Under the pieces are notes generated by a model. The model saw only the letters and a program-made list of their open reading frames with translations. It made no database searches and was not told the origin of the DNA. Positions 10,832 through 55,458 of a stretch of DNA of 64,000 bases are shown here, piece after piece. A program made the position numbers and the translations under genes. The stretch is from Alphaproteobacteria bacterium (lineage in GTDB: Bacteria; Pseudomonadota; Alphaproteobacteria; Rs-D84). Position 1 is the stretch's first letter; each line of letters starts with the position of its first letter. The stretch is from NCBI GenBank assembly GCA_017629245.1, contig JAGBXO010000003.1, positions 1,897 to 65,896 of the forward strand, given 5' to 3'.

Positions 10832-10836
10832 CTGCT

Positions 10837-14800: not shown

Positions 14801-14850
14801 TCTCTACTTTAATATTTATCTTTTCAATTATATCACATTTAGGGCAAAAT

Positions 14851-22218: not shown

Positions 22219-23265
22219 ATGAAAATATGGATTGCAACAGGTGGTACAGGCGGGCATGTCTTTCCGGCATTAAGTGTTGCCACAGAATTGGCATCGCGTG
22301 GGCATAAAATCACAATATCGTGCGATGGTCGTGTGCGCGAAATGGTTCGTCGTGGCGCGCCCAAGGGTGCAAAAATTGTTCATGTTTGGGCGTCTGGTGT
22401 TGGCGCAAAAAGTCGCCTGAAACAGATGTATGCATTGTTTAAAATTGGCGTGTCTGCGGTCGCGCTGATATTGCGTTTTGCCTTTTTGCGTCCAAATCGT
22501 GTTGTTGCGTTTGGGGGGTATGCATCTGTGCCTGCTGTATTTGCGGCGCATGTTTGGCATGTTCCAACATTCCTGCACGAACAGAATGCGGCAATTGGCC
22601 GTGCAAATCGCTTCGCGATGCGCTGGGTAAAAACCTTGATGACCAGTTTCCCAACCGTGTCTGGCATACCCGAAACTGGTGCACGCGTTGTTTATACTGG
22701 CTTGCCAGTGCGCGGTGATTTCTTGTCTGCGTCTGCCGCACCATTGACGGGTGCTGGACGACTGTTGGTGACGGGTGGGTCACTGGGGGCGCAAATCCTG
22801 GATGATGTAGTTCCATCTGCAATCGCTGCTATGAAGAATAATAAAAAGATTTTTGTAACTCATCAAACGCGCCCCGAAAATGTAGAGCGTTTGCAGCGTT
22901 TTTATGCAGAAAATAAAATTCGTGCAAATGTTTTGTCTTTTATTCACGATATGGCGGGTGCAATTGTTGGGGCGGACTTAGTTATCGGTCGCAGTGGTGC
23001 CAGCACTGTTGTTGAATTACAGACTATTGGTCGTCCGGCAATATTGGTGCCCTTAAACATAAATCCTGACCAAGCTGCCAATGCCGCGTCATTCGCCAAA
23101 ACTGGTGGTGGCTTTGCGATTGAGCAATCCAAGTTTACGCCGCGTTGGTTGTCATCTACCCTGGCAGAATTATTTGATAATCCATCGCGTCTGGAAAAAA
23201 TGGCGCAAAAGGCGTATGTTGAAAATAATGCTGTTACGACAATCGCAGATGTTGTAACGAAATAA
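22219..23265 (+). CDS. murG: UDP-N-acetylglucosamine--N-acetylmuramyl-(pentapeptide) pyrophosphoryl-undecaprenol GlcNAc transferase
   Basis: 'IATGGTGGHVFPAL' N-terminal motif and GT-B architecture. Confidence 0.85.
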   Translation: MKIWIATGGTGGHVFPALSVATELASRGHKITISCDGRVREMVRRGAPKGAKIVHVWASGVGAKSRLKQMYALFKIGVSAVALILRFAFLRPNRVVAFGGYASVPAVFAAHVWHVPTFLHEQNAAIGRANRFAMRWVKTLMTSFPTVSGIPETGARVVYTGLPVRGDFLSASAAPLTGAGRLLVTGGSLGAQILDDVVPSAIAAMKNNKKIFVTHQTRPENVERLQRFYAENKIRANVLSFIHDMAGAIVGADLVIGRSGASTVVELQTIGRPAILVPLNINPDQAANAASFAKTGGGFAIEQSKFTPRWLSSTLAELFDNPSRLEKMAQKAYVENNAVTTIADVVTK

Positions 23266-23298
23266 AAAAAATCCCACCGAATGGTGGGATTTTTTTTG
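23264..23298 (+). terminator. intrinsic terminator (atcccacc-gaat-ggtgggat + T8)
   Basis: 8-bp stem at 23271-23278/23283-23290 flanked by A8/T8. Confidence 0.7.
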
Positions 23299-23365
23299 TA
23301 AAAACATTTTTCTACTTGCGCACGATTCGTCTTTTGTTCTATGATAAAACCAGAAGGGAAGAAAG

Positions 23366-24673
23366 ATGCGTCGTATTACAATCAGTGTATTGTCGGTATT
23401 TGTTGTGTTGCCTGCGATTGCGGGTGGTCGTTTGCCTGTGGTAAATATTGCCTCGGGTGGTGTTTCTGCGCGGGCCGCATTTGGCGAAGCGGATACCAAA
23501 CCCGTTACGGTTGCGGTCACCACACAAAAAAAACAGGCGTCGCCCACACGGACCAGACGCGTTGTTTCGCGCAGTGCCACGCCGGTCCAGGCGGTTGATG
23601 TGGGTGAAAAAATTGTTGCATCAAATGATGTTTTATCGCCACGTCGCCCCAGCAATGATTTATGGGCAAAAAGTGACAACGCGTTGCGTATGCCAATGCC
23701 CAGTGAATTTTCTGTGATACGCACCGATTCTGTTTTACCAGAAGAAAGTTTGGATAAAACCTTTGCGGTGGCACCTGTGACCAAATCGGTCGCCCCCGCG
23801 CCACGCATGGCCAAAACGCAGGTTGCGCCAACGACTGCGCCGGCCACATCGGAATCTGACCTAGATACACAAATTGCGCGACTGGCCCAATTGCAAAAAC
23901 GCGCCGATGACAGTGTGCGTACCGTTTCGCGTCGTGTCATTTCTGCGCCAATTGCTGAAATGCAAACACATTCAGAACCGCGCACGGTTGCATCTGCCGC
24001 GCCTGTGAAAAGCGAATCTGTATCTTTACATCGTATGGTTGTTCCAATGGAAACAGACAATGTTGTAATGCGTGCCGTTGAAAAAACGAAATCTCCGCGC
24101 ATTGCAGCGGTTCGCGATGATATGACAAAAATGAATCCGAATGAATTGCGTCGTGCGTTTCGTAAAACATTTTTAGAAGAAAATAAGCATCTGTCCACAT
24201 TTTCAATAGACTCGCGCTTTGACACAGCCAGTGATATGTCCGCATCAATCGAAGGGTTCACTGCAAATCACGACCTGTCCGAAGGTACTGGGATACGTCC
24301 GCTGGAAATCAAGATTAAATTCCGCAATGCAGATTCTGCCCTGTCGCGCGACAATTATACATTATTAACCGAATATGCTGGTATCGTTGTAAACAAACCG
24401 ACACGCGCAATTCAGGTTGCAATACCGTCATACATGACAATGAAATCTGACGAACGCAAATTGGCGGCACGTCGTCTGGCAATTATTGAACAGGCCCTGA
24501 CTGATAATGGTGTTTCAAAACAGCGAATTGTACCTGTTCTATCTAACCGTGATGAGCCTAGTTTTGTTCTGCGTATTATCTCGGGCGATGAATATGAAAC
24601 ATTAACGCAACAGTCACGAAATATGTTTGGTGATACTGTGTCTAAAAAGACTTATAAAAGTATGTCGTGGTAA
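23366..24673 (+). CDS. secreted T/A/P/S-rich protein of unknown function (possible OmpA-like C-terminal segment)
   Basis: RBS aGGGAAGAAAG + ATG. Signal peptide 'MRRITISVLSVFVVLPAIAGG'. The antisense 363-aa ORF (23170-24261) was judged an artefact. C-terminal 'RRLAIIEQALTDNGVSKQRI' is weakly OmpA-like. Confidence 0.5.
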   Translation: MRRITISVLSVFVVLPAIAGGRLPVVNIASGGVSARAAFGEADTKPVTVAVTTQKKQASPTRTRRVVSRSATPVQAVDVGEKIVASNDVLSPRRPSNDLWAKSDNALRMPMPSEFSVIRTDSVLPEESLDKTFAVAPVTKSVAPAPRMAKTQVAPTTAPATSESDLDTQIARLAQLQKRADDSVRTVSRRVISAPIAEMQTHSEPRTVASAAPVKSESVSLHRMVVPMETDNVVMRAVEKTKSPRIAAVRDDMTKMNPNELRRAFRKTFLEENKHLSTFSIDSRFDTASDMSASIEGFTANHDLSEGTGIRPLEIKIKFRNADSALSRDNYTLLTEYAGIVVNKPTRAIQVAIPSYMTMKSDERKLAARRLAIIEQALTDNGVSKQRIVPVLSNRDEPSFVLRIISGDEYETLTQQSRNMFGDTVSKKTYKSMSW

Positions 24674-25389
24674 AGTTCTTTAATAGTGTTATTGGCTTTT
24701 TATTTCCGCCGGCGTGTCCGCTTTGTGATACGCCGGTATCTATTCATGGCGAATTGTGCGCCGAATGTTGGGCCGCAATTGATTGGATTACATGGCCTTA
24801 TTGTGTGCGGTGTGGTTATCCATTCCCGGCGGATTTAGACCTGGGTGGCACGCCACTTTGTCCAATATGTGCGTCGGGAAAAACTGAACTGGATTGGATT
24901 CGCTGTGCATGTGTATATGATGCGGCGTCGCGTTCTGCAATGTTGCCGTTCAAGCATGGTGGGCGAATAAAATATGCACGCTTTATGTCGCGTGCAATGA
25001 TGTGGGCGTTGCGTGATATTAATGTTGATGCTGATATTGTAATGCCTGTGCCGCTGGCGAACCGCCGACTGTTTTCGCGTGGCTATAACCAGGCGACCCT
25101 ATTGGCGCGTCCTATTGCACGCACATTGGATGTGTGTCTGGATGTTGATTCTGTTCGTCGCAAATTCAGGCCAGACATGGGGCACAAAAACGCGCGTCAG
25201 CGTCTGGAAAATATTCATGGTGTATTTTCGGTTGTGCGGCCTGATAAAATCCGTGGTAGAAAAATTTTGTTGGTTGATGATGTTATGACGACTGGCGCAA
25301 CATTTTCAGAATTGTGTCGTGTATTAATGCGTGCTGGTGCATCAGCGGTTTATGGTGTGACATTTTGTCGTGTTGTGCGCACGATTTAA
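24667..25389 (+). CDS. comF: ComF/GntX family phosphoribosyltransferase-domain protein
   Basis: N-terminal Cys4 'CPLCDT...CAECW' and a C-terminal PRTase motif 'ILLVDDVMTTGAT'. Confidence 0.75.
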   Translation: MVKFFNSVIGFLFPPACPLCDTPVSIHGELCAECWAAIDWITWPYCVRCGYPFPADLDLGGTPLCPICASGKTELDWIRCACVYDAASRSAMLPFKHGGRIKYARFMSRAMMWALRDINVDADIVMPVPLANRRLFSRGYNQATLLARPIARTLDVCLDVDSVRRKFRPDMGHKNARQRLENIHGVFSVVRPDKIRGRKILLVDDVMTTGATFSELCRVLMRAGASAVYGVTFCRVVRTI

Positions 25390-25769
25390 TTTAGTATTTT
25401 ATATTTGTTTGGGGTTTGTATATTATGAATCGCGCTTTGCATTTCTTGATAGATTAGTTTTGTTGAACACATCTGGAACAGTTTTAAAACGCACAGGGCA
25501 GGTTGGGCCATTGTCTTTTTTTTGTCCGAGATTATTGTGTTGGCGACCTTGTATCCATCAACATAAATGCTGTATTTGTAAATGGTTGCATCTTTGTTTT
25601 TATACAGCATTAATTGCTCAAAGTCATATGCTGTGCCATCCTTGCCGACAAGACTGTAATCTGTGGATTCCAAGGAATCGCCATTTGTGATTCTGTATAC
25701 AGACACATATCCGTCAATAATTGCTTGACGGATTTTTTCTTGCAATAATGTGTCCGCTGCAAACTGCAT
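25386..25769 (-). CDS. hypothetical protein (127 aa), second gene of a two-gene minus-strand unit
   Basis: Start overlaps the upstream stop by 1 nt (TAATG). No motif recognised. Confidence 0.4.
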   Translation of the reverse strand: MQFAADTLLQEKIRQAIIDGYVSVYRITNGDSLESTDYSLVGKDGTAYDFEQLMLYKNKDATIYKYSIYVDGYKVANTIISDKKKTMAQPALCVLKLFQMCSTKLIYQEMQSAIHNIQTPNKYKILN

Positions 25770-26140
25770 TATTTCGCTTTCTCAATTCTTTTACCATTCA
25801 AGAAATCGATTAATATTTGTTCTTTGGCTGTCAAGTGCTTTGCGGCGTTGCGTGCGCGTTCTAATTCTGCATAGCGATTACTGATTGTGTGCAGTATATC
25901 AAACATGTCGCGTTGTTCTTGTGTCATCGCCTTGTTTGCATTTTCATACCATTCAATCTTAAATGTTGTGCCGTGAATGGTCAGTGTGTACAGGCCGTAA
26001 TCCCATCCGTTTGTATATTCCATCAAGATATTTCCGTTTACGTCCTTGACGATATATTCGTCAATGCCAGGGTGACGGGTCAAGACAACATTGTTGCGAT
26101 TTGCTGTATCGATAATAGTTTGTTTTAATAGGTTGTTCAT
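25769..26140 (-). CDS. hypothetical protein (123 aa), first gene of a two-gene unit
   Basis: Clean ORF with an AT-rich upstream region; no motif recognised. Confidence 0.4.
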   Translation of the reverse strand: MNNLLKQTIIDTANRNNVVLTRHPGIDEYIVKDVNGNILMEYTNGWDYGLYTLTIHGTTFKIEWYENANKAMTQEQRDMFDILHTISNRYAELERARNAAKHLTAKEQILIDFLNGKRIEKAK

Positions 26141-26284
26141 TCTTGTATCCTTTAAAAGTAGTTATACTTACTCTTAAATATAACACAAAAGAAAAGTTTG
26201 TCAAGTGCTAACTTTGTTGCAAAGTTGAAATTATTTGTCTAAACTTTTTGTGTCCTGTATATGTGAAAATAAAAAGGAGAAAAT

Positions 26285-26809
26285 ATGAATTTTAAATTTT
26301 TGTCTGTTCTTGCCGGCTTGTTGTTGCCTGTTGTGGCAAATGGGGCAATGCCGCATGTTGGTTTTTATCAGACGATTGATGATGAAACAAAGTCGCCTAA
26401 ATCGATAGTTGCGTTGTATGAATATACGGATGGTGATGATGTAGAATTAGCTGGTCGGATTATTGCGTTGTATGGTACAGACGGCGCAGTTTCTGAAACT
26501 TTGTCTAATCCTGTTCGTGTTGCAGATTCTGTGTCTGGTGCACCAAAGATGGTTGGACTGGATATTATTTGGAATATGGAATGGGATGCGGATGATTCCA
26601 GGTACGAAGATGGAAAAATCATGGATCCAAAGTCTGGCAAGATTTATTCCAGTCTTATGTGGCAGGAAACGCCTGGTGTTCTGAATGTTCGTGGAAAAAT
26701 CGGACCGTTTGGTCGCACGCAATATTGGAATGTTATGTCTGTATCTGATTTGCCATTGGATTTGCAAAATCTGGATATGTCCAAATGGGCGCCAAAGGTT
26801 ATAAAATAA
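26285..26809 (+). CDS. secreted DUF2147-like protein
   Basis: RBS AAGGAGA + ATG and a signal peptide. 'DPKSGKIYSSLMW...LNVRGKIGPFGRTQYW' resembles the DUF2147 signature. This is from memory and was not aligned. Confidence 0.4.
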   Translation: MNFKFLSVLAGLLLPVVANGAMPHVGFYQTIDDETKSPKSIVALYEYTDGDDVELAGRIIALYGTDGAVSETLSNPVRVADSVSGAPKMVGLDIIWNMEWDADDSRYEDGKIMDPKSGKIYSSLMWQETPGVLNVRGKIGPFGRTQYWNVMSVSDLPLDLQNLDMSKWAPKVIK

Positions 26810-26838
26810 AAATACCGCCCGTTTGGGCGGTTGTTTAT
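26808..26838. terminator. bidirectional intrinsic terminator (ccgccc-gttt-gggcgg)
   Basis: Hairpin at 26815-26830 between convergent genes. It overlaps the MerR stop codon. Confidence 0.55.
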
Positions 26839-27212
26839 TGCAAAATATTTTTTGCGTTTTCTAATAATGTTATTGCTGTATCTATTTCGTCGGCCGAATA
26901 GGATGTCGTGACTGTCTGTGTTATTGTTGCCGATTGTGATGTGTTGGCGTCTGACAAATTAGCAGGTAAATTTCCGTCGCGTAACAATTTTTTTACCCCT
27001 GCAATTGTCATGCCGTGTGTATACAGCAAATCTTTTATTTGAATTAATTTCTGTACAGTTTCCGTGCGGTAATATCTGCGCCCACCGGCCCCTGTTGTTG
27101 GGCGAATTGCAACTGGGAATTGTTTTTCCCAGTATCGCAGGGTGTGTGCCGGCACGGCCAGTCGTTTTGAAACTTCGTTTATAGATGCAAAGTATTCATT
27201 ATTATTTTCCAT
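26835..27212 (-). CDS. MerR-family transcriptional regulator
   Basis: 'INEVSKRLAVPAHTLRYWEKQF...GRRYY' is a MerR-type HTH. 125 aa, immediately downstream of gyrA. Confidence 0.75.
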   Translation of the reverse strand: MENNNEYFASINEVSKRLAVPAHTLRYWEKQFPVAIRPTTGAGGRRYYRTETVQKLIQIKDLLYTHGMTIAGVKKLLRDGNLPANLSDANTSQSATITQTVTTSYSADEIDTAITLLENAKNILQ

Positions 27213-27230
27213 GCCGGCATTCCTCTTTCT

Positions 27231-29969
27231 TTATTCTGCGACTGTTGCTTCTGCGTTTGTGGCATTTTCTGTTTCTTCTTCGCCTGCGCCTTCAATTGAA
27301 ATTGCTGATACAACCTTTTCATTGTCGGCTGTGCGGAACAGCGTGACCCCTGCCGTACTGCGGCCTGCAATACGAACATCTGCGACCGGTGTGCGAATAA
27401 TTTTGCCACCATCTGTCACCATGATAATATCATGATCGTCTGCAACCGGGAAGGAACCTGCCACCGCAGTATTTTTTCCACCAAGTTTAATGTTTGCAAA
27501 TCCACCGCCACCACGATGGGTCAGACGGTATTCGTATGAACTGGTGCGTTTGCCAAATCCGTTTTCAGAAATGGTCAAGATGAATTCTTCGCGTTCTGCC
27601 ATTTCGGCCATTTTTTCATCGCTCAGAACAATTGTTGTTTCTTCTTCATCTGTGTCTGCTTCTTCTTCGATTCCGGTTTCTGCACGACGTGCTGCGCGTG
27701 ATTGTTTGATGTACGCCGCGCGGATTGCAGAATCGGATTCGCCGCGGTTCAGCATTGCCATGTCGATAATACGGTCATCCGCCCCCAGTGTTATACCGCG
27801 CACGCCGGTTGAATTGCGTCCTGCAAAGATGCGGATTTCTGTTACAGGGAATCGGATTGCACGACCGCGATATGTTGCCAAGAAAACATCCTGGTCTTCA
27901 TTGCATGGCAGAACAGAAATCAAACTGTCGCCTTCGTCCAATTTCATTGCAATTTTACCGTTTGCGCGAATTGAGTCAAAGTCACTCATGCGATTACGGC
28001 GCACAGTGCCTGATGCTGTTGCAAACATCAAGAAGTGTTCTTTGCCTGATTCTGCAACGCGTGCCACATCTTCTTCTGGAACTGGCAAAATAGCAGTAAT
28101 TGTTTCGTCTTTTTCCAGTGGTAACAGATTTACCAATGGGCGTCCCTTGGCTGCGGCGGCCGCTTCGGGTAATTTGTATGTTTTTAATTTATAGCACAGG
28201 CCCTTAGAGCTAAAGAACAGCAGTGGTGTGTGTGTGTTTGCAACAAATACCTGAACAACATAGTCGTCGTCTTTTGTTGCCATGGCATTGCGTCCTTTGC
28301 CACCGCGTTTCTGCGCGCGATATGTATCCAATGCAACGCGTTTGATGTATCCTGTGTTTGAAACAGTAATAACCATATCTTCGCGTGCAATCAAATCTTC
28401 GATGTCAATATCGATTTCTGCGTCTGAAATTTCTGTTCGGCGCGGTGATGCCCAGTTGTCACGAACAGATTCTGTTTCTTCGCGAATGATTTGAACAATG
28501 CGTTCCTGGCTGCCCAAGATTTCTAATAAGTCACGGATGGTTGCCCCCAGGGTTGTTAAATCGTTGTGAATCTTGTCGCGTTCCAGACCTGTCAGGCGGT
28601 GTAATTGCAATTCCAAGATTGCGCGTGCCTGGTCTTCGGACATATAGAACATGCCGTCTTTATATTCTGTGTTCGGATCGTCAATCAGCTGGATGTATGA
28701 TTCAATATCTGATGCCTTCCACCCGCGTGAAATCAGTGCTTCGCGTGCGGTGTCTGGGTTTGGGCTGGATTTAATTAATTCAATTACTTCGTCCAGGTTT
28801 CCAACCGCAACCGACAGTCCTAACAAAGTATGTGCGCGATTGCGTGCCTTGTTCAAATCAAAGATTGTACGACGACGAATAACCTCGGCACGGAACTCGA
28901 TAAATGCATCCAGTACCCCGCGAACATTAAACAGCATTGGGCGACCGCGATTTAACGCCATCATATTAACAGGAAAACTGGTCTGCATTTCTGTGTATTG
29001 GAACAAGTGATTCAATACGACATCTGCAATTGCATCGCGTTTTAATTCAATAACGATTCGCAGGCCTTCTTTGGACGATTCGTCACGAATTTCAGAAATG
29101 CCTTCTATGCGTTTATCTTTAATCAGTTCAGCGATTTTGATAATCAGTTGCGCTTTGTTTACCTGATATGGAATTTCATCAACGATAATTGCCTGGTGGT
29201 CGCGGAAATCTTCGATGTGCGTTTTTGAACGAACGATAATTGAACCGCGGCCTGTTGTGTGTGCTTTGTACGCGCCGGCGTGTCCCATAATCATCGCGCC
29301 TGTTGGAAAATCAGGGCCTGGGATAATGCCGAACAATTCATCGTCCGTCAGGTTTTTATTTTCCAAAATTGCCAAAATGCCATTACAGATTTCGCCCAGG
29401 TTGTATGTTGGAACATTTGTTGCCATACCAACCGCAATACCAGAACCTCCATTTACCAAGAAGTTTGGAAACTTGGTTGGCAACACAACTGGTTCTTGTA
29501 AACTGCCGTCAAAGTTTGGCATCCAATCCACAGTGTCTTTTTCCATGTCGTCCATCAGCGATGCGCCCAGTTTTGACAGGCGTGCCTCAGTATAACGCAT
29601 GGCGGCTGCCTTGTCTCCATCTCGTGAACCAAAGTTACCCTGACCCTGGACCAGCATTTCGCCCATTGAAAAGTCTTGTCCCATACGAACCATGGCTTCA
29701 TAAATAGAACTATCACCATGCGGGTGGTATTTACCCATAACATCACCGACAATACGCGCAGACTTAACAGTTGGCTTGGTCGCTGGCGCAACATCATTCA
29801 TAACATACAGAATTCTGCGATGTACCGGCTTGCACCCGTCGCGTACATCTGGCAATGCGCGGTCGACAATAACCGACATTGCATAGTCCAAGAAACTGGT
29901 TCGCATTTCGTGTTCCAACGAAGACTGTGGAACGCGTATTTCATTTACTTCATTAATATTTTCTGACAT
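27231..29969 (-). CDS. gyrA: DNA gyrase subunit A
   Basis: '...[20 protein letters not shown]', '[15 protein letters not shown]' and an active-site Tyr region '[10 protein letters not shown]'. Start chosen at MSENINE (cat at 29967-29969) with RBS AGGAAAGG. The longer ORF extension lacks an RBS. Confidence 0.9.
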
Positions 29970-30097
29970 ACTGCCTTTCCTATTGTTAATAACACACAAA
30001 ACATAGCAGATTTTTGGGCTTTTGGTCAAGAAATAAAGGTTAAAATTTTGTTTGACAAATTGTTGCTTTGTGGTAGCCTGTGGGGGGTTAAAATATA

Positions 30098-30286
30098 ATG
30101 ATGCAACAAATGAAACAGGATTTATTAGAAGTACGCGAAATCGTAAAAGACATGCGTGATGCCCCAGATACAGATGGATTCGCGCGTGCGTGTTATTCGT
30201 GTCAGGTATGGGGTTTAAACCGAATGATTGGTGCGATTGATGTTGCGCGGTATGTTAAACATTTGTTGCAACAAAAACAAAAGTAA
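30098..30286 (+). CDS. small hypothetical protein (62 aa)
   Basis: ORF with a GGGGG stretch 9 nt upstream, in the gyrA divergent region. Weak. Confidence 0.25.
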
Positions 30287-30530
30287 CAAGGGAACGCGAC
30301 ATGTTTTTACCGTTTTACAGATTGCTTACCGCAATATTTGTGTACTATCTGTTTTTAGAAGGTCTAAAAAAGATGGGGCTGGTAAAGTCAAAATAATTTA
30401 AAGAAAACAGTTGCGTTTTATAAAATCGTATGATTAAATAGACGCACAAACAGATTTTTTTCTGGGTGCTTATGATGCTGCTCGGGCACGCAGAATGAAA
30501 AAGAAAAGAAAAACACAAGGGAATTAAGTC

Positions 30531-30683
30531 ATGGCAACAAAACGTACATATCAGCCTTCTAAGACACGTCGTATCCGTACACACGGGTTCCGTGCCAGAA
30601 TGGAAACCAAGGGCGGCCGCGAAGTATTAAATCGTCGTCGCGCAGCAGGTCGCAAAAGAATTGCTGTATCTGCAGTCAGATAA
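30531..30683 (+). CDS. rpmH: 50S ribosomal protein L34
   Basis: Translation '[50 protein letters not shown]' is canonical L34. It is absent from the ORF track (under 60 aa). A terminator follows. Confidence 0.85.
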
Positions 30684-30685
30684 TA

Positions 30686-30713
30686 AAGAAACGCCCAACT
30701 GGGCGTTTTTTTA
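30686..30713. terminator. intrinsic terminator (acgccc-aact-gggcgt + T7)
   Basis: Hairpin at 30691-30706 followed by ttttttt. Bidirectional with the minus-strand gene ending at 30714. Confidence 0.65.
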
Positions 30714-31547
30714 TTATCTGGACTTCTGTTGCATGTGCATGACTAAATCTATTGAAGTGCCAGTCATATTTGATTTTACGGTATATATATCCATCTTGTG
30801 ATGTTTTTGTATTTTTTGATTTATAGCGATTAAAAAAGATTTCCAAAAATTTAAAAATAGGTCTGTTGGAGTGTCGTCAGGTATCCACATATAATCCATG
30901 AATATTGTTCCTTTGTTGTTCAGATTTTTTGACAGTGGATTTAGGATGTAGTTATAGTAATCAGTCATTGCGTCAATTCCGTTGTTTTTGTTTGTTGGCA
31001 TTGACTCATAAATGTTTGACAGCATTATTATATCGTATTTCTGATTTAGTGTATGTGGTAAATATCTTATGTCTACGTGTTTGAAATCAAATTTATATGG
31101 CAATTTGCTTTGTAGATCCTGGTATTTATTATTGCTGTGTAAATAAGATGTGTTTTCAATTGTGGGTTCGGGTTCAAAAACGCGGAAGTTTCCGCTTTTT
31201 AAATCTAACAGTAACATAATTTCGGCTGGGGTTATGTTTTGTTCAATGTTGCTCAGCAATTCCAATTTAAATTGCATGCGTTTTGAAAAAAAGAAATCCA
31301 TAAATTTATTATAGTCCAAATATCGTATCATTTTTGTTTTTAAGTCAATGACCGTCTTTTGCAGGATGTTTATGTCAAATGTATCAACGTGTTTTGCGCC
31401 TGCTAATAATGCTTCAAAAGCATGGTCTCCAGAACTGGCAACGGTTAAAACATTTTTGTTCTTTGCGCCACCGGATTTCGCAATGTATTCTTGTACATTT
31501 TCATTTGTGAATAAAAATACAGGGGAATTATCGTCGTATTTTACCAT
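30714..31547 (-). CDS. DUF3419/BtaA-like SAM-dependent enzyme family protein (class I MTase-like fold), unknown substrate
   Basis: 'VLTVASSGDHAFEALLAGAKHVDTFDINILQ' matches the DUF3419 'vLtiaSaGcN...vDlNp.Q' N-terminal motif. 'KYDIIMLSNIYE' resembles the family's second motif. Very AT-rich. Confidence 0.4.
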   Translation of the reverse strand: MVKYDDNSPVFLFTNENVQEYIAKSGGAKNKNVLTVASSGDHAFEALLAGAKHVDTFDINILQKTVIDLKTKMIRYLDYNKFMDFFFSKRMQFKLELLSNIEQNITPAEIMLLLDLKSGNFRVFEPEPTIENTSYLHSNNKYQDLQSKLPYKFDFKHVDIRYLPHTLNQKYDIIMLSNIYESMPTNKNNGIDAMTDYYNYILNPLSKNLNNKGTIFMDYMWIPDDTPTDLFLNFWKSFLIAINQKIQKHHKMDIYTVKSNMTGTSIDLVMHMQQKSR

Positions 31548-31601
31548 TGTTTAACCTTTTGTGACAAATATAAACAATGTTTTTTGTTTGTCAATGGTGG
31601 A

Positions 31602-32264
31602 TTATTTTTGTTTTTCAGAAATGGCGCTGTCTTTTTCCTGCAGTAATTGCTCAATCTTAATCAATCTGTTCATTATCTGTGCATTAGATAAGCTGTCAAA
31701 ATACTGTGTTATATTTTGTTTTGTTGCGGTGTTTGATGGCAGTGTTCGTCTGGCTGTGCTCAGTCTTTCGATTAATCGCTGATTTTTATTGTATGCGTTT
31801 TGTGCTTTCCTGACCTCTGGAACATGAAAGAATGTATAAAATGTTTCTTCATTGCACGGAATGTCTGTTATGTACGATGGACTTTCTATTGCGGCGCGTT
31901 GTGCGCGCTTTAATTGTATTTTATTATTAAGTCTCAGACTGTCTAATTGTTTGTTGATTCTTTGTCTTGCGATATAATTTTCATTGTTGTGCAATGAATC
32001 TGTTGTGTTTTTATCTTTGTTTTTTGCTATGCTGTCGACTTCGTTAAACAGTTGTTTTATTGTATGGTCTTTTGTTGCAATAATCTTGTTCAGTCTTGCT
32101 TGCTTTACAGAATCGGAATATGCTGAATATTTTTGCGTTGCCTGTGGTTCTGATGATTCTGTTTCTTTGCTTGTGATGCATGCCAATGCGATTGCGCAAA
32201 TCATCATGCCGCATGCGCATACAAAATCAATCTTTTTAGAATTAAATAAATCACGAATGTTCAT
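31602..32264 (-). CDS. probable lipoprotein / coiled-coil protein of unknown function
   Basis: Start taken at the internal Met (MNIRDLF...) to avoid overlap with tRNA-Glu. Lipobox-like 'IALAC' after a hydrophobic segment. Q/K/N-rich. Confidence 0.4.
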   Translation of the reverse strand: MNIRDLFNSKKIDFVCACGMMICAIALACITSKETESSEPQATQKYSAYSDSVKQARLNKIIATKDHTIKQLFNEVDSIAKNKDKNTTDSLHNNENYIARQRINKQLDSLRLNNKIQLKRAQRAAIESPSYITDIPCNEETFYTFFHVPEVRKAQNAYNKNQRLIERLSTARRTLPSNTATKQNITQYFDSLSNAQIMNRLIKIEQLLQEKDSAISEKQK

Positions 32265-32285
32265 AATAAAAACTGCAAATAAAAA

Positions 32286-32360
32286 TGGCAGTCCCAACGG
32301 GAATCGAACCCGTGTTACCAGAATGAGAATCTGATGTCCTAACCGCTAGACGATGGGACC
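32286..32360 (-). tRNA. tRNA-Glu (anticodon CUC)
   Basis: Hand fold on the minus strand. Acceptor GGTCCCA/TGGGACT, D-arm GTCT/GGAC, anticodon stem TCAGA/TCTGG, loop TTCTCAT, T-arm ACGGG-TTCGATT-CCCGT, encoded CCA. Closely resembles E. coli tRNA-Glu apart from the anticodon. Confidence 0.8.
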
Positions 32361-32443
32361 ACTGACGGATATGTTACACGTATTTAATAAATTTTTCAAA
32401 TGAAACTTTTCCTTGCGCCCAATATTTTTTTGACCTAGGATAC

Positions 32444-33190
32444 GTGTATATTATGGCGGGTAGAATAAGACGTTTTTTTACAAATATTATATGCGGTTGT
32501 GTTTATAACAAGGATAAACGCAAACATCTGCGCGTTCTTCTAAATTCACCTGTGTCGTCCTATGTTCGATTTGTGCGCAAAAATACCGGATGTCCAATAA
32601 AGAAGTTGCGAACTTTCATTGGATATCAGGCGCGAAATTTATTAATCAGCGTGAATGACGAATATATATATAAGTTTCCGTTGCGCCGTTCTAATTCGGA
32701 TGAGTTGGCACTGCGTGAAAAAAGAATAGTTGATGCATTGATTCCTGTGTCGCCAATCGGTATCCCGCCGGTTGAAATATACGAATATCATGGTGTGTTG
32801 GTTCGTCGTTATCCGTTTGTTCGTGGTGTGCGCTTGCGTGAAATTCCATTAGATGTTGTGTTAAAAAATGTAAAGATTTTAGCGCCGCAAATCGCAGTCT
32901 TTTTGCATGCCATTGGTGTTTGTGATCCAGATGAAATCCGTGACTTAAAGCCAGATGTTAATTCTAAGCCGGGATATATGTATGGTTGGTTTCATGGTGA
33001 TATTGGTGATAATTTCTTTGTAGATATTGATACTATGCAGATTACTGCTTTTATTGATTGGGAAGATTGCTATTTTGGTGATTTTTCTGCGACTTTTACT
33101 GGGGATAAACGTTCGCCAAATCGTGAATTGATGCGTGCTGCATCACAAGAATACAAGAAATTGTATAATGGGGGATGTTATGGGGTTTAG
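32444..33190 (+). CDS. aminoglycoside-phosphotransferase/choline-kinase-like (PKL-fold) phosphotransferase, copy 1
   Basis: 'WFHGDIGDNFFVD' (Brenner-type H-G-D...N catalytic motif) and a downstream 'IDWED'. N-terminus 'RRFFTNIICGCVYNKDKRKHLRVLLN'. Paralogue of the next gene. Confidence 0.55.
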   Translation: MYIMAGRIRRFFTNIICGCVYNKDKRKHLRVLLNSPVSSYVRFVRKNTGCPIKKLRTFIGYQARNLLISVNDEYIYKFPLRRSNSDELALREKRIVDALIPVSPIGIPPVEIYEYHGVLVRRYPFVRGVRLREIPLDVVLKNVKILAPQIAVFLHAIGVCDPDEIRDLKPDVNSKPGYMYGWFHGDIGDNFFVDIDTMQITAFIDWEDCYFGDFSATFTGDKRSPNRELMRAASQEYKKLYNGGCYGV

Positions 33191-33926
33191 GCGTGTGTTA
33201 TCAAACGTTATTTGTGGTTTTATACCGAATAAAAAGGTTCGCAGCAAGGTTCGTATTGTTTTGAATAATCCGTCAGTTCGTCGTTATATTAAGTTTGTGC
33301 GTCGATGGGCAGATGAAAATTGTGGTGGGGTGAAAAAACTTTCGATAGAATTCGGCGTTGGGTGTCACAATATGGTTGTTTTGTTGAACAATATGCATGT
33401 CTTTAAGTTTTCTTTGTTGCCTGGACGAGAAGCACGCGCATATCACGAAGAACGTGTTGTGAATGCATTTAGAAAAATTTCACCGATACATTTTCCCGAA
33501 ATGGAATTGATTAAGATAGAAGATACAGTGGTTCGTCGTTACGAATATGTTGCTGGTAAAATGTTAACTGATTTTTCTCCGTCATACATAAATAAAAACA
33601 GAGTCAAGATAGCAAAGCAATTGGCAGGCTTTTTGTACTGTATTGGTTGTTCGGATCCTGTAGAGTTGCGCGATTTAAAGCCTGATTTGCGCACAAAGCC
33701 AGGTTTTTTATATGGTTGGTTTCATGATGATATAGGTAATAATTTTATGCTGGATGACAATTTAAATATTATTGCATTTATTGATTGTGAAAATATGAAG
33801 TTTTGCGATTTTAAAGAATCTTTAGCGAACTCAGAGCATTTCTGGGATAAAAACGGAATTCGTGGGTTGATGATAGAATTGCTGTCGGAATATACAAAAT
33901 TATATTATTCAAAACAGAAAAAATAG
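33180..33926 (+). CDS. aminoglycoside-phosphotransferase/choline-kinase-like phosphotransferase, copy 2 (tandem paralogue)
   Basis: 'WFHDDIGNNFMLD...IDCEN'. N-terminus 'MGFRRVLSNVICGFIPNKKVRSKVRIVLN' is collinear with copy 1. Start at ATG 33180 overlaps the copy-1 stop by 11 nt. Confidence 0.55.
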   Translation: MGFRRVLSNVICGFIPNKKVRSKVRIVLNNPSVRRYIKFVRRWADENCGGVKKLSIEFGVGCHNMVVLLNNMHVFKFSLLPGREARAYHEERVVNAFRKISPIHFPEMELIKIEDTVVRRYEYVAGKMLTDFSPSYINKNRVKIAKQLAGFLYCIGCSDPVELRDLKPDLRTKPGFLYGWFHDDIGNNFMLDDNLNIIAFIDCENMKFCDFKESLANSEHFWDKNGIRGLMIELLSEYTKLYYSKQKK

Positions 33927-33993
33927 AAATCAATATTTCTCTTCTGTTTGTGTTATATTATTTATCTTTATGTGTGGATTCAATGTAGTGTTA

Positions 33994-35085
33994 TTATAGG
34001 TGGTTTTTGTTAATTGTGTTAATTATGTCAATCAGTGTTTTGGTGTAGTTAAAAATGTCTTTTATTTCTATGTGTTCATTTGTTGTGTGTGCGTGCTGAA
34101 TACTGCCTGCGCCATAAACAACGGTGTCAATTCCGTATTTTTGAAAAAATCCAGCCTCGGTCGCAATGGGGGATGTTATATTTGGTGTGTTTATAATATT
34201 TGTAATCTGGCTGTTATTGTTTTTTGACAGTGCATATATCTCTTCTGCGATATTATTTTTTATGTCTAATCCTGGTGTTTGGCGCATTAATTTGTTTTGA
34301 AATTCAGTCACAGACTGAATTATGTTTCTATGTTCTTTATCTGATGTATATCGAATCTCCCAATCAAAAGTTGTTGTGTCGGCAACAGTGTTTCTTTGTG
34401 TGCCACCGTAAATACGTCCAACATTAATTGTTGTTCCCGTTTCTAAGTATTGCTTGGCTAATATTTGCAGGTGTGAAATTAATTCTGTGGCGAAATAGAT
34501 GGCGTTTACTCCGTTTTTTATCTGACTGGCGTGCGCAGATCTGCCATATACAGTTGTTGAATATCCGCAATATCCATTATGAGAAACGATAGTATTCATG
34601 CTTGTTGGTTCTCCAACAATTGCCATGTGTGGATGTATGTTATTTGTCTGCATAAAATCGCATATGTGCTTTATGCCTGTAACATCTGTTTCTTCGTCGC
34701 CTGTCAGTGTTAATATAATCGGAAATTTTTGTTTTTTAAATTCTGGTATCAGTGCTAATAAAATTGCGATAAAATATTTCATGTCGACAGCGCCGCGCCC
34801 AAAAATTTTGTCGTTTGTGCGTGTTGGTAAAAATTGTTCTGTGTTTCCTGGGACGGTGTCCATATGTCCCGACAGTAATAAGCCAGAATTTATATCATGT
34901 AAAGCATTTGTATTGATTCCGGCAATAATGCTTTCTGCTTGGTTTTTTGTGTGTTTGATTCGGGTGTAAATAATATTGTGTTTGTCTAATATATTGCAAA
35001 CATAGTCTGAGATGTTTTTTATTTTATCGTGTGTATCAGATTGTACAGAAATTAGATTGTCTAAAATTCCTAGAATATCGTTCAT
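33994..35085 (-). CDS. M20-family metallopeptidase/deacylase (ArgE/DapE-like)
   Basis: 'SGHMDTVP', 'GRGAVDMK' and 'GDEE' metal-binding motifs. 363 aa. Extremely N/I-rich. Confidence 0.7.
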   Translation of the reverse strand: MNDILGILDNLISVQSDTHDKIKNISDYVCNILDKHNIIYTRIKHTKNQAESIIAGINTNALHDINSGLLLSGHMDTVPGNTEQFLPTRTNDKIFGRGAVDMKYFIAILLALIPEFKKQKFPIILTLTGDEETDVTGIKHICDFMQTNNIHPHMAIVGEPTSMNTIVSHNGYCGYSTTVYGRSAHASQIKNGVNAIYFATELISHLQILAKQYLETGTTINVGRIYGGTQRNTVADTTTFDWEIRYTSDKEHRNIIQSVTEFQNKLMRQTPGLDIKNNIAEEIYALSKNNNSQITNIINTPNITSPIATEAGFFQKYGIDTVVYGAGSIQHAHTTNEHIEIKDIFNYTKTLIDIINTINKNHL

Positions 35086-35141
35086 GTGAATGCCTTTTGA
35101 TTAATTTTATATATGTTGCAAACAAACGCAATAAAAAGTTA

Positions 35142-35170
35142 TAAAAAACCGCCTGGTTTGGGCGGTTTTA
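35142..35170. terminator. bidirectional intrinsic terminator (aaccgcc-tggtttg-ggcggtt)
   Basis: Hairpin at 35147-35167 with flanking A/T runs. It overlaps the stop of gene 35168-35902. Confidence 0.55.
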
Positions 35171-35902
35171 ATTTCTTGGTTTTATATGATATCGTTCCAT
35201 GAATTTGCTGATTTGGGAATTTTTGCTTGGGCTGATTGTGTTTGGCATGTTTTCTATTTTCGTAATTTTCGTAATTTTTTGTTTTTCTTTTGTTTTGACA
35301 GCGTACAAATTTTGGTTGTCTCCTAATCCCAAAAATGCCTCGTTCAGCAATTTGTTGTATCTGTGTTTAAAATCTGTGTCATGTTCATACAGATAATGGG
35401 TGACCTTTTCGATTAATCCTGAATGATTATTTGCGCAAAAGTTTTTAATTCGTGAAAACTTCCCGTCCGTAACGATTTCCAGCCCCTTTTTATCCAGGGC
35501 TTTAATTTCTATTCTGTCGAATTTGATTGGTGTTTTGGTTGCAGAATCATAAATCATATCAAACATAAAATCTTGCATGGCTTCGTAATCCAGCATCCAT
35601 TTAGGGTATTGAATGTCTGTTGGGTTGATTTCGCATTCTGCGATATATGCGCTTTTGCCAGGGGTGCTTTCCCATCCGTCTTTCATTGTTTTTATGTGAT
35701 TTTGTGCCCCCTGATATGTTGTAAAGAAATAATATCCGTTGCTTTGTCCGCCCAGTGCGCTGCGCGATGGGTTAAAGTATCCTGATTGTTTTATTTTTTG
35801 AAAGTCTGATTCGTTAATTGGGGTAATTATATGATACAGGATAATTTTGTCTGATTTTAATTGCTTGCTTCCTTGGTGGAATTGTGTTGCTTTCTCGTTC
35901 AT
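35168..35902 (-). CDS. hypothetical protein (244 aa)
   Basis: Clean ORF. RBS AGGAGGTTACATATG on the minus strand. No motif recognised. Confidence 0.5.
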   Translation of the reverse strand: MNEKATQFHQGSKQLKSDKIILYHIITPINESDFQKIKQSGYFNPSRSALGGQSNGYYFFTTYQGAQNHIKTMKDGWESTPGKSAYIAECEINPTDIQYPKWMLDYEAMQDFMFDMIYDSATKTPIKFDRIEIKALDKKGLEIVTDGKFSRIKNFCANNHSGLIEKVTHYLYEHDTDFKHRYNKLLNEAFLGLGDNQNLYAVKTKEKQKITKITKIENMPNTISPSKNSQISKFMERYHIKPRN

Positions 35903-35943
35903 ATGTAACCTCTTTCTTCTGTGATTATATCACAAAGATTTAA

Positions 35944-35972
35944 GAAAACCGCCATAAAAAGGCGGTTTTTTG
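35944..35972. terminator. bidirectional intrinsic terminator (ccgcc-ataaaaa-ggcgg + T6)
   Basis: Hairpin at 35949-35965. Confidence 0.55.
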
Positions 35973-35991
35973 CTTTCGAAGTATTTTAAAA

Positions 35992-36243
35992 TTAACGTTG
36001 CTTTTCTGTTAAAAACAATCCTGCGCATCCCCCGGCCAGTGCCAGCAGTGCCGCGCCGCTTAATAGAGTTTCTGTTTGTTGGCTAATAATTCTCTTTTCA
36101 TGGTAATTGCGCGTTTCTTCGTCTGCATATTGCAATTCGTCGCGGAAGTCGGATGTTCCTGCGACTGCTAATGCCAAAACAAAGCCTGTGCCTGCAGATG
36201 CCATGGATAAAGTTCTTAATAATTTGCGTTTCTTTTCGTTCAT
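35992..36243 (-). CDS. small two-TM membrane protein, hypothetical
   Basis: Start at the internal MNEKKRK. Two hydrophobic segments: 'GFVLALAVAG' and 'GAALLALAGGCAGLFL'. Confidence 0.35.
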   Translation of the reverse strand: MNEKKRKLLRTLSMASAGTGFVLALAVAGTSDFRDELQYADEETRNYHEKRIISQQTETLLSGAALLALAGGCAGLFLTEKQR

Positions 36244-36480
36244 TTTAAATCCTTTGTGTTTATTACTCATCACTATATAGTACAAATATAATAGTTGTCA
36301 AGTGTTTTGTGAAAATAAATAGTCCCAGGGAAAATAACAAAACGGCCTTCCTTTAATCAATAGGTCTTGAATTTTTTTGGGGGGCGCGCGTGGGGAAGGG
36401 GGAACTCGAACAAAATATTGACATTGTTTTATGTTGCAATCACTGAAACTGATTGCTCAAACGCATGAAGCCTTGCAAAC

Positions 36481-36507
36481 AAAAAAATGCCCCAGCGGGC
36501 ATTTTGT
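36481..36507. terminator. intrinsic terminator downstream of tRNA-Gln (atgccc-cagc-gggcat)
   Basis: A7 + hairpin at 36487-36502 + T4. Lies 3' of the minus-strand tRNA. Confidence 0.5.
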
Positions 36508-36513
36508 TAACTG

Positions 36514-36587
36514 TGGTTGGGGCGCACGGATTCGAACCATGATAAAGAGAACCAAAATCTCTTGTCCTACCATTAGACGACACCCCA
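36514..36587 (-). tRNA. tRNA-Gln (anticodon UUG)
   Basis: Hand fold. U1-A72 acceptor TGGGGTG/CGCCCCA (as in E. coli tRNA-Gln), anticodon stem AGAGA/TCTCT, loop TTTTGGT, T-arm CATGG-TTCGAAT-CCGTG, encoded CCA. Confidence 0.75.
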
Positions 36588-54761: not shown

Positions 54762-55458
54762 TCACAATTCAAAGCAAGATTTTTTTGGAAATTTTTTGCC
54801 TAAAAAGTCTTGATTTTGTTTTCGGATTTCGTCATTGGTTCTGACAGTATCGTTTATACAAAACAAAGGCGGATTGATGTTTTTCAGCGCAGTTTTTGCA
54901 TCTTCGCAATATACGGGCGCATTCAAACATTTTTTTCTGTGTATCAGGTTGTAAATAAAATGTTTGCGGTGTTTAAAATGTCGTGCACGCTTAAAGATTG
55001 CGCGACCATGAACCAAATCATACAAATTGAAAATCCAACGTTGCAGTTCCCAATCGGTTCTAAATTTATTTTTGATTTGCGAATCGATATCTCGTTTCAG
55101 CATAGGATGATTTCTGCATTGTATCACAGAAGATTTTATACAACGCATCTGGTGTTTGAACGCGTAAATTCCGCATTCCAATCGCAATTTTTGCCAACTG
55201 CACACATGTCCACGCCTGATATTTATCAAGATTTTGCCCCTGCACACCCGGCAGACATACAAACACCCATCCATGTTGTGTCAGTATTTTAATATCGCGC
55301 CACCTTAATTTTATTTTTACGATTTTGTTGCGATGCACAAATTGATACATTGTTAAACATGCACCCGTTGAATAAATTACCGCGACATGCCTAAAATCCC
55401 GACAAAAGATTCGTGGCAAAACCTTGGATGTTTTATGTGTAAAGCCAATAATAATCAT
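54762..55458 (-). pseudogene. probable frameshifted pseudogene of unknown function
   Basis: Two same-strand ORFs (55066-55458 and 54762-55274) overlap by about 200 nt in different frames. There is no RBS for the downstream one. Consistent with a single decayed gene. Confidence 0.3.

Follow-up and report, generated by a model that had tools for sequence, protein, structure and literature searches.

An AT-rich tRNA-Glu/tRNA-Gln interval in Candidatus Enterousia, probably a lineage-wide gene-turnover hotspot without mobile elements

The DNA analysed here belongs to Candidatus Enterousia of the order Rs-D84, a group of reduced-genome gut Alphaproteobacteria. Within the window, meaning the whole 64-kb stretch of DNA that was analysed, a block at positions 30,714-36,300 has the rpmH terminator on one side and tRNA-Gln on the other, with tRNA-Glu inside it (Table 1). 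Its coding content includes a short DUF3419-type enzyme, two tandem APH-fold kinases, an ArgE-like M20 hydrolase and three orphans. Pfam hits and the identity between the two kinases agree with the gene content listed in a first-pass annotation, and both tRNA genes were also found where it had placed them, one as a border and one within the block.

Table 1. Features of the block and its borders in the 64-kb window.
Feature	Position	Strand	Evidence or remark
merR-gyrA-orf62-rpmH segment, oriented opposite to that of most relatives	26835..30720	.	Alignment to relatives
rpmH (ribosomal protein L34), left boundary	30531..30683	+	Translation; Pfam Ribosomal_L34 on identical contig
Bidirectional intrinsic terminator of the convergent rpmH and DUF3419-like genes	30677..30720	.	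20-pair (20-bp) stem, T runs on both strands
Short DUF3419-family SAM-dependent transferase, 277 aa	30714..31547	-	Pfam DUF3419 38.2 bits (cutoff 28.2)
unk220, orphan	31602..32264	-	Hydrophobic N-terminus; coiled-coil-like, Q/N/K-rich body
tRNA-Glu(CTC), conserved anchor within region	32286..32360	-	ARAGORN, Rfam; position kept across relatives
APH-fold kinase 1, 245 aa, resident gene of the locus	32453..33190	+	Pfam APH 26.6 bits (cutoff 23.2)
APH-fold kinase 2, 248 aa, tandem paralogue	33180..33926	+	Overlaps kinase 1 by 11 nt
M20 metallohydrolase, ArgE/DapE type, 363 aa	33994..35085	-	Pfam M20 and M20_dimer
Whole-gene indel site and terminator hairpin	35138..35169 (hairpin 35,145-35,169)	.	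AAAACCGCCTGGTTTGGGCGGTTTT
unk244, near-orphan	35168..35902	-	Without family match
Terminator hairpin downstream of tm83	35945..35971	.	AAAACCGCCATAAAAAGGCGGTTTTTT
tm83, small protein with two hydrophobic segments	35992..36243	-	Gene call on identical contig
Terminator after tRNA-Gln	36484..36505	-	Hairpin fold
tRNA-Gln(TTG), right boundary anchor	36514..36587	-	ARAGORN, Rfam

BtaA, the SAM:diacylglycerol 3-amino-3-carboxypropyltransferase, belongs to the Pfam family DUF3419, and the DUF3419-type protein of the block resembles it in scoring above the gathering threshold and in its SAM-binding Rossmann N-terminus. However, the match covers only positions 30-100 (70 of 385) of the profile, the protein is ~100 aa shorter than the 385-position model, the block has no BtaB partner gene, and the AF2 model (pLDDT 93) has a class-I methyltransferase fold resembling generic small-molecule and rRNA methyltransferases; the earlier label of BtaA-like is therefore not established. 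All 69 homologues are short DUF3419 proteins from Alphaproteobacteria MAGs. Among the relatives, whose loci carry L-numbers, the gene occupies the same slot in L030, L088 and L092 and is absent in L008.

The two kinases are 39% identical, with the same catalytic residues, and the DNA repeats D1, D2 and D5 run across the pair at a spacing of 727-730 nt. The AF2 model of kinase 1 (pLDDT 90.6; invariant residues K74, E89, D183, N187 and D202) had APH(2'') as its top PDB matches in Foldseek (E 6e-9, TM 0.64). Like APH(2'') and the eukaryotic-like small-molecule kinases, the block kinases have this fold, the catalytic Lys, Glu and Asp/Asn and the Mg-binding Asp; unlike APH(2''), to which they are 15-19% identical, they are ~50 aa shorter and bear a strongly basic, family-specific N-terminal extension of three helices. 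They also score far under the resistance-gene models (15.5 bits for APH(7'')-Ia, against a cutoff of 640), and could act as membrane-proximal small-molecule kinases. Every one of the 194 homologues of kinase 1 comes from the same lineage.

As in the ArgE/DapE deacylases, the M20 protein has a catalytic and a dimerisation domain, and its metal-ligand motifs (GH.DTVP, DMK, DEET, GEPT and AH) are conserved in the alignment to E. coli ArgE 7rsf (E 8e-28). Its homologues grade into alphaproteobacterial ArgE, with 30-33% identity to the named enzymes; unlike these, it falls below the NCBIfam acetylornithine deacetylase equivalog cutoffs (239.5 against 412, and 217.5 against 297.7), and its gene is patchily distributed and located in a variable region, not in an arg or dap context. 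The protein could act as an N-acyl-amino-acid deacylase. For the orphans, unk220 had no above-cutoff Pfam family; it has a homologue at 61% identity in L030, weak ones (25-34%) beside tRNA-Glu in L022, L024, L033, L044, L045 and L052, and none in L008 or L088. No family in Pfam, NCBIfam, PADLOC or PHROG was assigned to unk244, which is carried by L036, L037, L092 and L094 and has 14 cluster representatives as homologues among 1.84 billion proteins. Homologues of tm83 (47-61%) occur in L008, L019, L030, L043 and L088.

By strand, the genes are ordered - - (tRNA-) + + - - - (tRNA-), with only two switches, so that the strand alternation described in the first-pass annotation does not hold. Neither do its CCGCC/GGCGG terminators between almost all gene pairs, since the block has four strong G+C hairpins (Table 1), two of that type, and the DUF3419/unk220 and kinase 2/M20 junctions have weak AT-rich stems only. 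The CCGCC...GGCGG motif occurs eight times at gene ends across the window and is therefore the generic terminator of this genome. For the most part, the block genes are monocistronic, with their own promoters and terminators.

The reported AT-richness was confirmed by a composition scan of the window: GC is 35.5% in the block, the lowest of all 5.6-kb sliding windows, against 42.8% in the remainder, so composition is not uniform. Mean gene GC is 36.9% in the block and 42.8 +/- 3.2% for the other genes (Mann-Whitney p=0.0015), and the deficit is concentrated at the first and second codon positions; at the third the difference is modest (GC3 of 0.347 against 0.389, p=0.008). A few equally AT-rich genes are found elsewhere in the window (463-1981, 3134-4458 and 12333-13532).

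Across 80 species-level relatives, the tRNA-Glu/tRNA-Gln interval (0.4-6.7 kb) has the same orientation in 27 of the 27 in which both tRNAs were captured, and in each its GC is below that of the flanks (mean 0.367 against 0.413). The anchors, tRNA-Glu(CTC) and tRNA-Gln(TTG), and the AT-rich nature of the interval are thus conserved lineage-wide, and the cargo is not: the interval ORFs fall into 50 families, 39 of them singletons, with APH-like proteins and a long HD protein, at 11 loci each, as the recurrent ones. In the relatives, tRNA-Gln(TTG) is a conserved neighbour of HD/MarR/OEP/RND. The kinase family, with one or both paralogues, was found at 25 of the 80 species loci, and is the sole block family that recurs next to tRNA-Glu. 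One or two tandem copies of the kinase, mostly divergent from this tRNA, form a small resident core, with a membrane or coiled-coil orphan often on the opposite side; the two paralogue types are retained differentially among relatives.

Between the window and its sister genomes the differences are clean indels of whole genes, which are gained or lost one by one. L092 is collinear at 93% nucleotide identity, its only difference being a 3.14-kb autotransporter gene at ~35,138, and L094 has similar content plus an autotransporter. L008 lacks 30,731-32,285 and 33,167-36,075, and L088 lacks 31,544-32,280 and 33,937-36,072; most relatives are fragmented MAGs, in which a gene missing from the 10-kb flank may still lie elsewhere and repeats may have been misassembled. 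These differences bear out the earlier description of the block as accessory, its synteny not being conserved in all relatives. The genes are intact, lineage-specific and under purifying selection: dN/dS is 0.10-0.15 for the two kinases, DUF3419 and unk220, similar to the 0.09-0.18 of p435, comF and DUF2147, these values being rough because dS is saturated (about 1-2).

The rpmH, gyrA and merR genes are present in all relatives, with varying neighbours. Aligned to L045, L044, L037, L024 and L047, positions 26,965-30,716 run opposite to both flanks, and L008, L030, L088 and L092 have the same arrangement as the window; rpmH adjoins the variable interval because this segment is inverted. Each breakpoint has a palindromic terminator (26,815-26,830 and 30,689-30,708), and a local inversion between the two may have brought rpmH beside the hotspot in the window's clade.

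Low GC, a position at the 3' ends of two tRNA genes, and absence or different content in many relatives would also fit a genomic island integrated at tRNA-Gln or tRNA-Glu, with a module imported from another lineage, and the M20 homologue of another genome does adjoin an integrase/HipA/Fic island. This origin, close to the single horizontally acquired unit proposed in the first-pass annotation, is already largely refuted and is considered highly improbable. Pfam profile searches found no integrase or recombinase in the block, the att-like repeat search returned no tRNA-derived direct repeats (best matches of 10-12 nt, E >= 0.2), no TSD was found at the indel junctions, the block gave no PADLOC or PHROG signal, and its similarity to phage or plasmid DNA was limited to the tRNA-Glu gene. 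Furthermore, the discordant best hits that were expected did not appear, as those of the kinase, DUF3419 and M20 proteins either come from this one lineage of gut Alphaproteobacteria or merge gradually into alphaproteobacterial ArgE. The interval is also old and AT-rich in all 27 relatives, and GC3 of the block genes differs only modestly from that of the other genes in the window. The AT-richness would instead stem from lineage-specific proteins under weak constraint in a small genome with an AT bias; it is not general to the cargo, as the autotransporter of a relative has 43.7% GC.

A single pathway is very unlikely. In it, a lipid head-group, LPS component or small metabolite would undergo SAM-dependent transfer, phosphorylation and deacylation, and selection would hold the genes together despite their separate transcription. 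The three enzyme types are plausibly directed at small molecules, the basic extension of the kinases could bind membranes, a distant DUF3419 homologue adjoins FabH, PlsX and a PLD-type enzyme, and DUF3419, the kinases and M20 are found together in the closest clade, where the window, L092, L094 and L030 share DUF3419 and/or M20 plus kinases. Such co-occurrence is expected from common ancestry, although this alone does not exclude a functional link. Against a coherent module, which had also been suggested earlier, the genes are separately transcribed on mixed strands and come and go independently: L088 has DUF3419 and both kinases without M20, L008 has kinase 1 alone, and about 20 further species hold only the kinase family at the locus. 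In addition, 57%-identical homologues lie in unrelated contexts, that of DUF3419 next to NrdDG and AMP-binding genes, with neither kinase nor M20, and that of M20 elsewhere without DUF3419 or kinases. Unlikely as well is a locus dedicated to diversifying the surface or secreted proteins through which a metabolically dependent bacterium with a type IV secretion system interacts with a host or partner, the block enzymes being effectors or envelope modifiers. The cargo of relatives includes 1,022-aa autotransporters, OM beta-barrel-like and lipoprotein-like proteins, several HExxH-motif proteins and one S8-like protease, VirB8, VirB9 and VirB10 are encoded in the window, and Enterousia genomes (0.75-1.0 Mb) are poor in transporters and rich in hypothetical membrane proteins (PMC12306168). 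However, most of the relatives' cargo was assigned to families by motif reading alone, no secretion signal was recognised in what was tested of the window's own cargo, M20 and DUF3419 look cytoplasmic, and dN/dS indicates purifying, not diversifying, selection.

Here it is proposed that the block is probably the local form of a gene-turnover hotspot, or plasticity interval, that is ancient, extends across the Candidatus Enterousia lineage and has no mobile elements. Turnover would proceed not through an integrase but through deletion and through homologous recombination within the conserved flanking DNA, and the genes would act independently and not as a pathway, the DUF3419 protein, for example, as a SAM-dependent transferase. 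Features of this kind are ordinary; for the Enterousia lineage the description is new. The block shares low GC, a location at tRNA 3' ends and variable presence with tRNA-targeted, integrase-mediated islands such as pathogenicity islands, but lacks their integrase, att direct repeats, mobility genes and foreign phylogenetic signal. Hotspots without mobile elements that diversify by recombination at flanking core genes have been documented (Oliveira et al. 2017, Nat Commun 8:841; PMC5635113), and as in those, the interval is flanked in many genomes by one and the same set of conserved genes and has rapid turnover, very diverse accessory families and tRNA neighbours, without integrases and transposases. 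Unlike them, it is seen across species of a genus or family and not inside one species, a large part of what varies within the closest clade resembles differential loss, and the interval lies in a reduced genome of ~0.9 Mb, where few such hotspots are expected.

The AT-rich block at 30,714-36,300 is a gene-turnover hotspot without mobile elements, having two tRNA anchors and a position conserved across a lineage of reduced genomes; it is neither a recently imported island nor a demonstrated pathway. The tRNA-Gln and tRNA-Glu genes, rpmH with its long bidirectional hairpin and the domain assignments reported by the first-pass annotation were all found as described, the domains by profile scans. 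The same annotation had the genes alternating in strand, with CCGCC/GGCGG terminators between nearly every pair; however, the order is three minus, two plus and four minus (tRNAs counted), with two strand switches, and the block has only four strong G+C hairpins. The CCGCC...GGCGG motif has 8 copies across the window at the ends of ordinary genes and is therefore the terminator style of this genome; on this ground the idea that the hairpins mark the borders of cassettes, or belong to a REP-like family, was rejected. Rfam scans of the region, with gathering and E-value thresholds, returned the two tRNAs alone, the terminator giving sub-threshold leader-like matches. The spacer between tm83 and tRNA-Gln carries a G-rich run, TTTGGGGGGCGCGCGTGGGGAAGGGGGAACTCGAAC, which was considered as a tRNA remnant but matched neither tRNAs nor Rfam families at E <= 1.

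Coordinates of the block, its surroundings and other window features, with the number of related loci that carry each block gene
Feature	Position	Strand	Loci (of 80)	Remarks
ORF with weak FTA2 match	1136-1981			
PagL-like lipid A 3-O-deacylase	3,781-4,458	-		Pfam E 1e-12
Palindromic terminator	26,815-26,830			CCGCCCGTTTGGGCGG; inversion breakpoint
gyrA	27,231-29,969	-		
orf62	30,098-30,286	+		62 aa
rpmH	30,531-30,683	+		
Strong G+C hairpin	30,677-30,720			
Palindromic terminator	30,689-30,708			AAACGCCCAACTGGGCGTTT; inversion breakpoint
DUF3419-like	30,714-31,547	-	2	277 aa
unk220	31,602-32,264	-	7	mostly 25-34% identity
tRNA-Glu(CTC)	32,286-32,360	-		
APH-like kinase 1	32,453-33,190	+	25 (APH-like kinase)	
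N-terminal extension, kinase 1	32,453-32,590			
APH-like kinase 2	33,180-33,926	+	25 (APH-like kinase)	
N-terminal extension, kinase 2	33,180-33,320			
M20	33,994-35,085	-	1	
Strong G+C hairpin	35,145-35,169			
unk244	35,168-35,902	-	2	
Strong G+C hairpin	35,945-35,971			
tm83	35,992-36,243	-	4	
tm83/tRNA-Gln spacer	36,244-36,513			271 nt
G-rich run	~36,380-36,425			
Strong G+C hairpin	36,484-36,505			
tRNA-Gln(TTG)	36,514-36,587	-		
HD-domain protein, then MarR, then OEP/MFP/RND efflux set	beyond tRNA-Gln			
ORF with weak Stealth CR4 match	54,762-55,274	-		170 aa
VirB8-, CagX/VirB9- and TrbI/VirB10-like	56,141-60,902	-		254, 508 and 871 aa

By exact protein matches, the window belongs to a metagenome scaffold of 172 kb (ERZ28653800, scaffold_15). 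The relatives compared were 80 loci from a GyrA-based scan of species-representative genomes (GyrA identity 88-99%), all of them MAGs from the gut that bear the label Candidatus Enterousia or unclassified Alphaproteobacteria, which were analyzed by tblastn with the window proteins and by tRNA scanning. The rpmH-gyrA-merR group is universal among them, and the commonest order is ftsW-murG-p435-comF-DUF2147 ... rpmH(-) gyrA(+) merR(+) (unk220) tRNA-Glu (APH-like x1-2) ... tRNA-Gln HD MarR OEP MFP RND, so the two tRNAs bound an old interval. Both tRNAs were captured at 27 loci, where they are co-oriented, with HD/MarR/OEP/RND genes past tRNA-Gln; the interval between them measures 0.4-6.7 kb, keeps its orientation in 27/27 loci and has a GC content below that of its flanks in all 27 (mean 0.367 vs. 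0.413). These shared anchors hold highly diverse content, with the interval ORFs forming 50 families, 39 of them singletons. Only the APH-like kinase and a long HD protein recur (11 loci each); among the rest of the cargo are 1,022-aa autotransporters, OM-barrel-like, lipoprotein-like and HExxH-motif proteins, an S8-like protease, a NERD-like protein and a second kinase type.

Presence and absence in sister genomes, a check that the first-pass annotation had proposed, bore out that block content differs by whole-gene indels between flanks that are 77-93% identical. In DNA alignments, the closest species representative (L008, 87.8% identity across gyrA) lacks 30,731-32,285, with the DUF3419 gene and unk220, so that rpmH almost adjoins tRNA-Glu there, and it also lacks 33,167-36,075. 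A second relative, L088, is missing unk220 and 33,937-36,072 and has an autotransporter in place, and neither of these two relatives showed target-site duplications or common motifs at the indel junctions. L030 keeps the DUF3419 gene, unk220, both kinases, M20 and tm83. The 93% identical L092 is collinear with the window from 22,703 to 36,428, its sole structural difference being a clean 3.14-kb autotransporter gene (L092:1287-4355; 1,022 aa, 43.7% GC) at window position ~35,138, by the 35,145-35,169 hairpin; the window has a clean absence there, with an 83-bp spacer and the hairpin left. This autotransporter is also found in L008, L088 and L094, the last with the order unk244-autotransporter-M20-kinase2-kinase1. 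The simplest history for the clade is a richer ancestral interval, which would have held tm83, unk244, the autotransporter, M20, two kinases, tRNA-Glu, unk220 and the DUF3419 gene, with whole genes later lost differentially and some replaced. For DUF3419, unk220 and the two kinases, dN/dS against sister genomes lies at 0.10-0.15, in the range of neighboring non-essential core genes, which indicates that these genes are maintained (dS saturated); as a test for diversifying selection, the values instead show purifying selection, with the same caveat on dS.

The segment next to the interval has its own rearrangement. The merR-gyrA-orf62-rpmH stretch at 26,965-30,716 aligns opposite to both flanks in five relatives (L045, L044, L037, L024 and L047), and the arrangement of the window is common to L008, L030, L088 and L092. 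Judged from these alignments, the window orientation (26,815-30,720) is the derived state, inverted relative to most relatives, and rpmH instead of merR thus borders the interval in the window. Both breakpoints lie at palindromic terminators, and the inversion may plausibly have arisen when one palindrome recombined with the other. Within the segment, orf62 keeps its position in the relatives with identity of merely 25-52% and matches no family.

A horizontally acquired island at a tRNA, as the block was at first interpreted, has the atypical base composition in its favor. The block is indeed AT-rich (35.5% GC vs. 42.8% in the rest), the lowest of all 5.6-kb sliding windows, and its genes have a mean GC of 36.9% vs. 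42.8 ± 3.2% for the other window genes (p = 0.0015). Codon positions 1 and 2 show a bigger deficit than position 3 does (GC3 0.347 vs. 0.389), which points to the amino-acid composition of N/K/I-rich, weakly constrained proteins as the source of the AT-richness rather than foreign codon usage. Other runs of ORFs lacking Pfam matches occur in the window (463-1,981; 3,134-3,757; 9,542-16,167), several of which match the block in AT-richness (36-39% GC), so the genome has more patches of lineage-specific genes. The remaining expectations of an island were not borne out, with no recombinase, no tRNA-derived repeat and no discordant best matches. Pfam and NCBIfam scans found no tyrosine or serine recombinase gene among the block ORFs, and the att-like direct repeats of the tRNA-Gln 3' end that had been suggested amounted to chance-level matches; for tRNA-Gln, tRNA-Glu and tRNA-Trp, repeat searches and blastn-short in the window turned up nothing beyond matches of 8-12 nt (E >= 0.2). 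None of the 27 relatives with both tRNAs has an empty, uninterrupted site, all intervals being occupied and AT-rich (the shortest 405 and 794 bp). Phage and plasmid DNA matched the block in the tRNA-Glu gene alone, and defence (PADLOC) and phage (PHROGs) profiles had no meaningful match. The BLAST check for phylogenetically discordant best hits found none: the 194 kinase homologues are all in similar gut Alphaproteobacteria MAGs and form a smooth gradient of identity, the 69 homologues of the DUF3419-like protein are all short DUF3419 proteins of gut Alphaproteobacteria MAGs, and those of M20 grade from Enterousia-like (54-98%) to named alphaproteobacterial acetylornithine deacetylases (30-33%).

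The block had also been proposed as one functional module, which was contradicted by independent retention at the locus and by the unrelated contexts of distant homologues. Its genes are present or absent independently of each other in the relatives, and co-directional, co-transcribed and co-occurring genes were not found across the block, where the strand switches twice and genes are separated by terminators; only the two kinases, with an 11-nt overlap, look co-transcribed. A DUF3419 homologue with 57% identity neighbors NrdDG and an AMP-binding enzyme, and a 39% identical one in another alphaproteobacterial MAG (L090:8001-8876) sits between a PLD-type enzyme and FabH/PlsX, the sole hint of a lipid link for this family. 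An M20 homologue with 57% identity (L091:1-9107) adjoins HipA, an HTH protein, a phage-type integrase, Fic, NUDIX and a Schlafen-like helicase, and that region, which belongs to a different genome, is by its gene content a genuine mobile or defence island.

Kinase 1 scores above the Pfam APH cutoff, and the family has a kinase fold with the catalytic residues K74, E89, D183, N187 and D202 invariant in the family alignment. The AF2 model (pLDDT 90.6) best matches APH(2'') structures in Foldseek (E 6e-9, TM 0.64, 15-19% identity). In contrast to APH(2'') enzymes, the family is ~50 aa shorter and has an N-terminal extension of ~45 aa, strongly basic, with three predicted helices and invariant N11, R23, R27 and N31, which is specific to the family and has no counterpart in APH structures. 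From sequence and models we infer that both proteins are active small-molecule kinases; the extension may serve in membrane binding or in targeting, and the kinases are possibly membrane-associated. Identity as an aminoglycoside-resistance APH was rejected (best curated model APH(7'')-Ia, 15.5 bits vs. a cutoff of 640). The window has no further kinase- or DUF3419-family paralogues, and the ORF with a weak FTA2 match is unrelated to the kinase profile.

The "BtaA-like enzyme" of the first-pass annotation keeps a DUF3419 match; however, this match is partial (profile positions 30-100 of 385) and covers only the SAM-binding N-terminus, hence BtaA function is not established. It also differs from the DGTS synthase system in that a BtaB-type second methyltransferase is absent among the block ORFs. 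The model (pLDDT 93) shows the class-I SAM-dependent methyltransferase fold in generic form; its best structure matches, at TM ~0.43, are NNMT, UbiG and rRNA methyltransferases. PDB sequence searches with this protein and with unk244 gave no significant match, and a count of 14 cluster representatives in 1.84 billion proteins makes unk244 a near-orphan. M20 has catalytic and dimerisation domains (Pfam E 6e-27 and 4e-17) and aligns to E. coli ArgE (7rsf, E 8e-28) with metal-ligand motifs kept; as an ArgE (acetylornithine deacetylase) equivalog it falls below the NCBIfam cutoffs (TIGR01892, 217.5 vs. 297.7; PRK07522, 239.5 vs. 412).

Reduced genomes are usually viewed as static. A well-bounded interval with ongoing accessory turnover marks where the remaining flexibility of such a genome concentrates, and it yields a few kinds of lineage-specific genes that are probably important in adapting to a niche or partner, namely the conserved minimal kinase family, the autotransporters and the orphans. 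The window also carries type IV secretion core genes of the VirB8, VirB9 and VirB10 types, in a lineage with ~0.9-Mb genomes. A PagL-like gene indicates, by its domain match, a capacity for LPS remodelling, and the ORF with a weak C-terminal Stealth CR4 match (25.4 bits, under the cutoff of 27.4) is possibly part of a broken capsule phosphotransferase-like gene. Two leads stand out as the most interesting, namely the conserved minimal kinase family specific to this lineage and, in a carrier of VirB8, VirB9 and VirB10 genes, the surface or secreted flavor of the cargo. It is conceivable, and in our estimate unlikely, that the interval serves the Rs-D84/Enterousia lineage as a conserved "interaction locus", dedicated to shuffling surface and secreted proteins (which would be autotransporters, OM proteins and HExxH proteases) and envelope-modifying enzymes, in which case the resident, lineage-specific minimal kinases with their basic three-helix extension would represent a novel functional class, such as effector kinases, either secreted or associated with the membrane, for dealing with a partner organism.

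As a methodological caution, low GC beside a tRNA is insufficient evidence of a recent island, and adjacent enzymes need not form a pathway. Candidatus Enterousia is uncultured and widespread in the gut, with a dependent lifestyle and genomes of ~0.75-1.0 Mb, and the order Rs-D84 lineage has reduced genomes without the TCA cycle or respiration (PMC12306168). The turnover hotspot described here, conserved across that lineage, is of an already known kind, the mobile-element-free hotspots of Oliveira et al. 2017 (PMC5635113), of which it is a previously undescribed instance.
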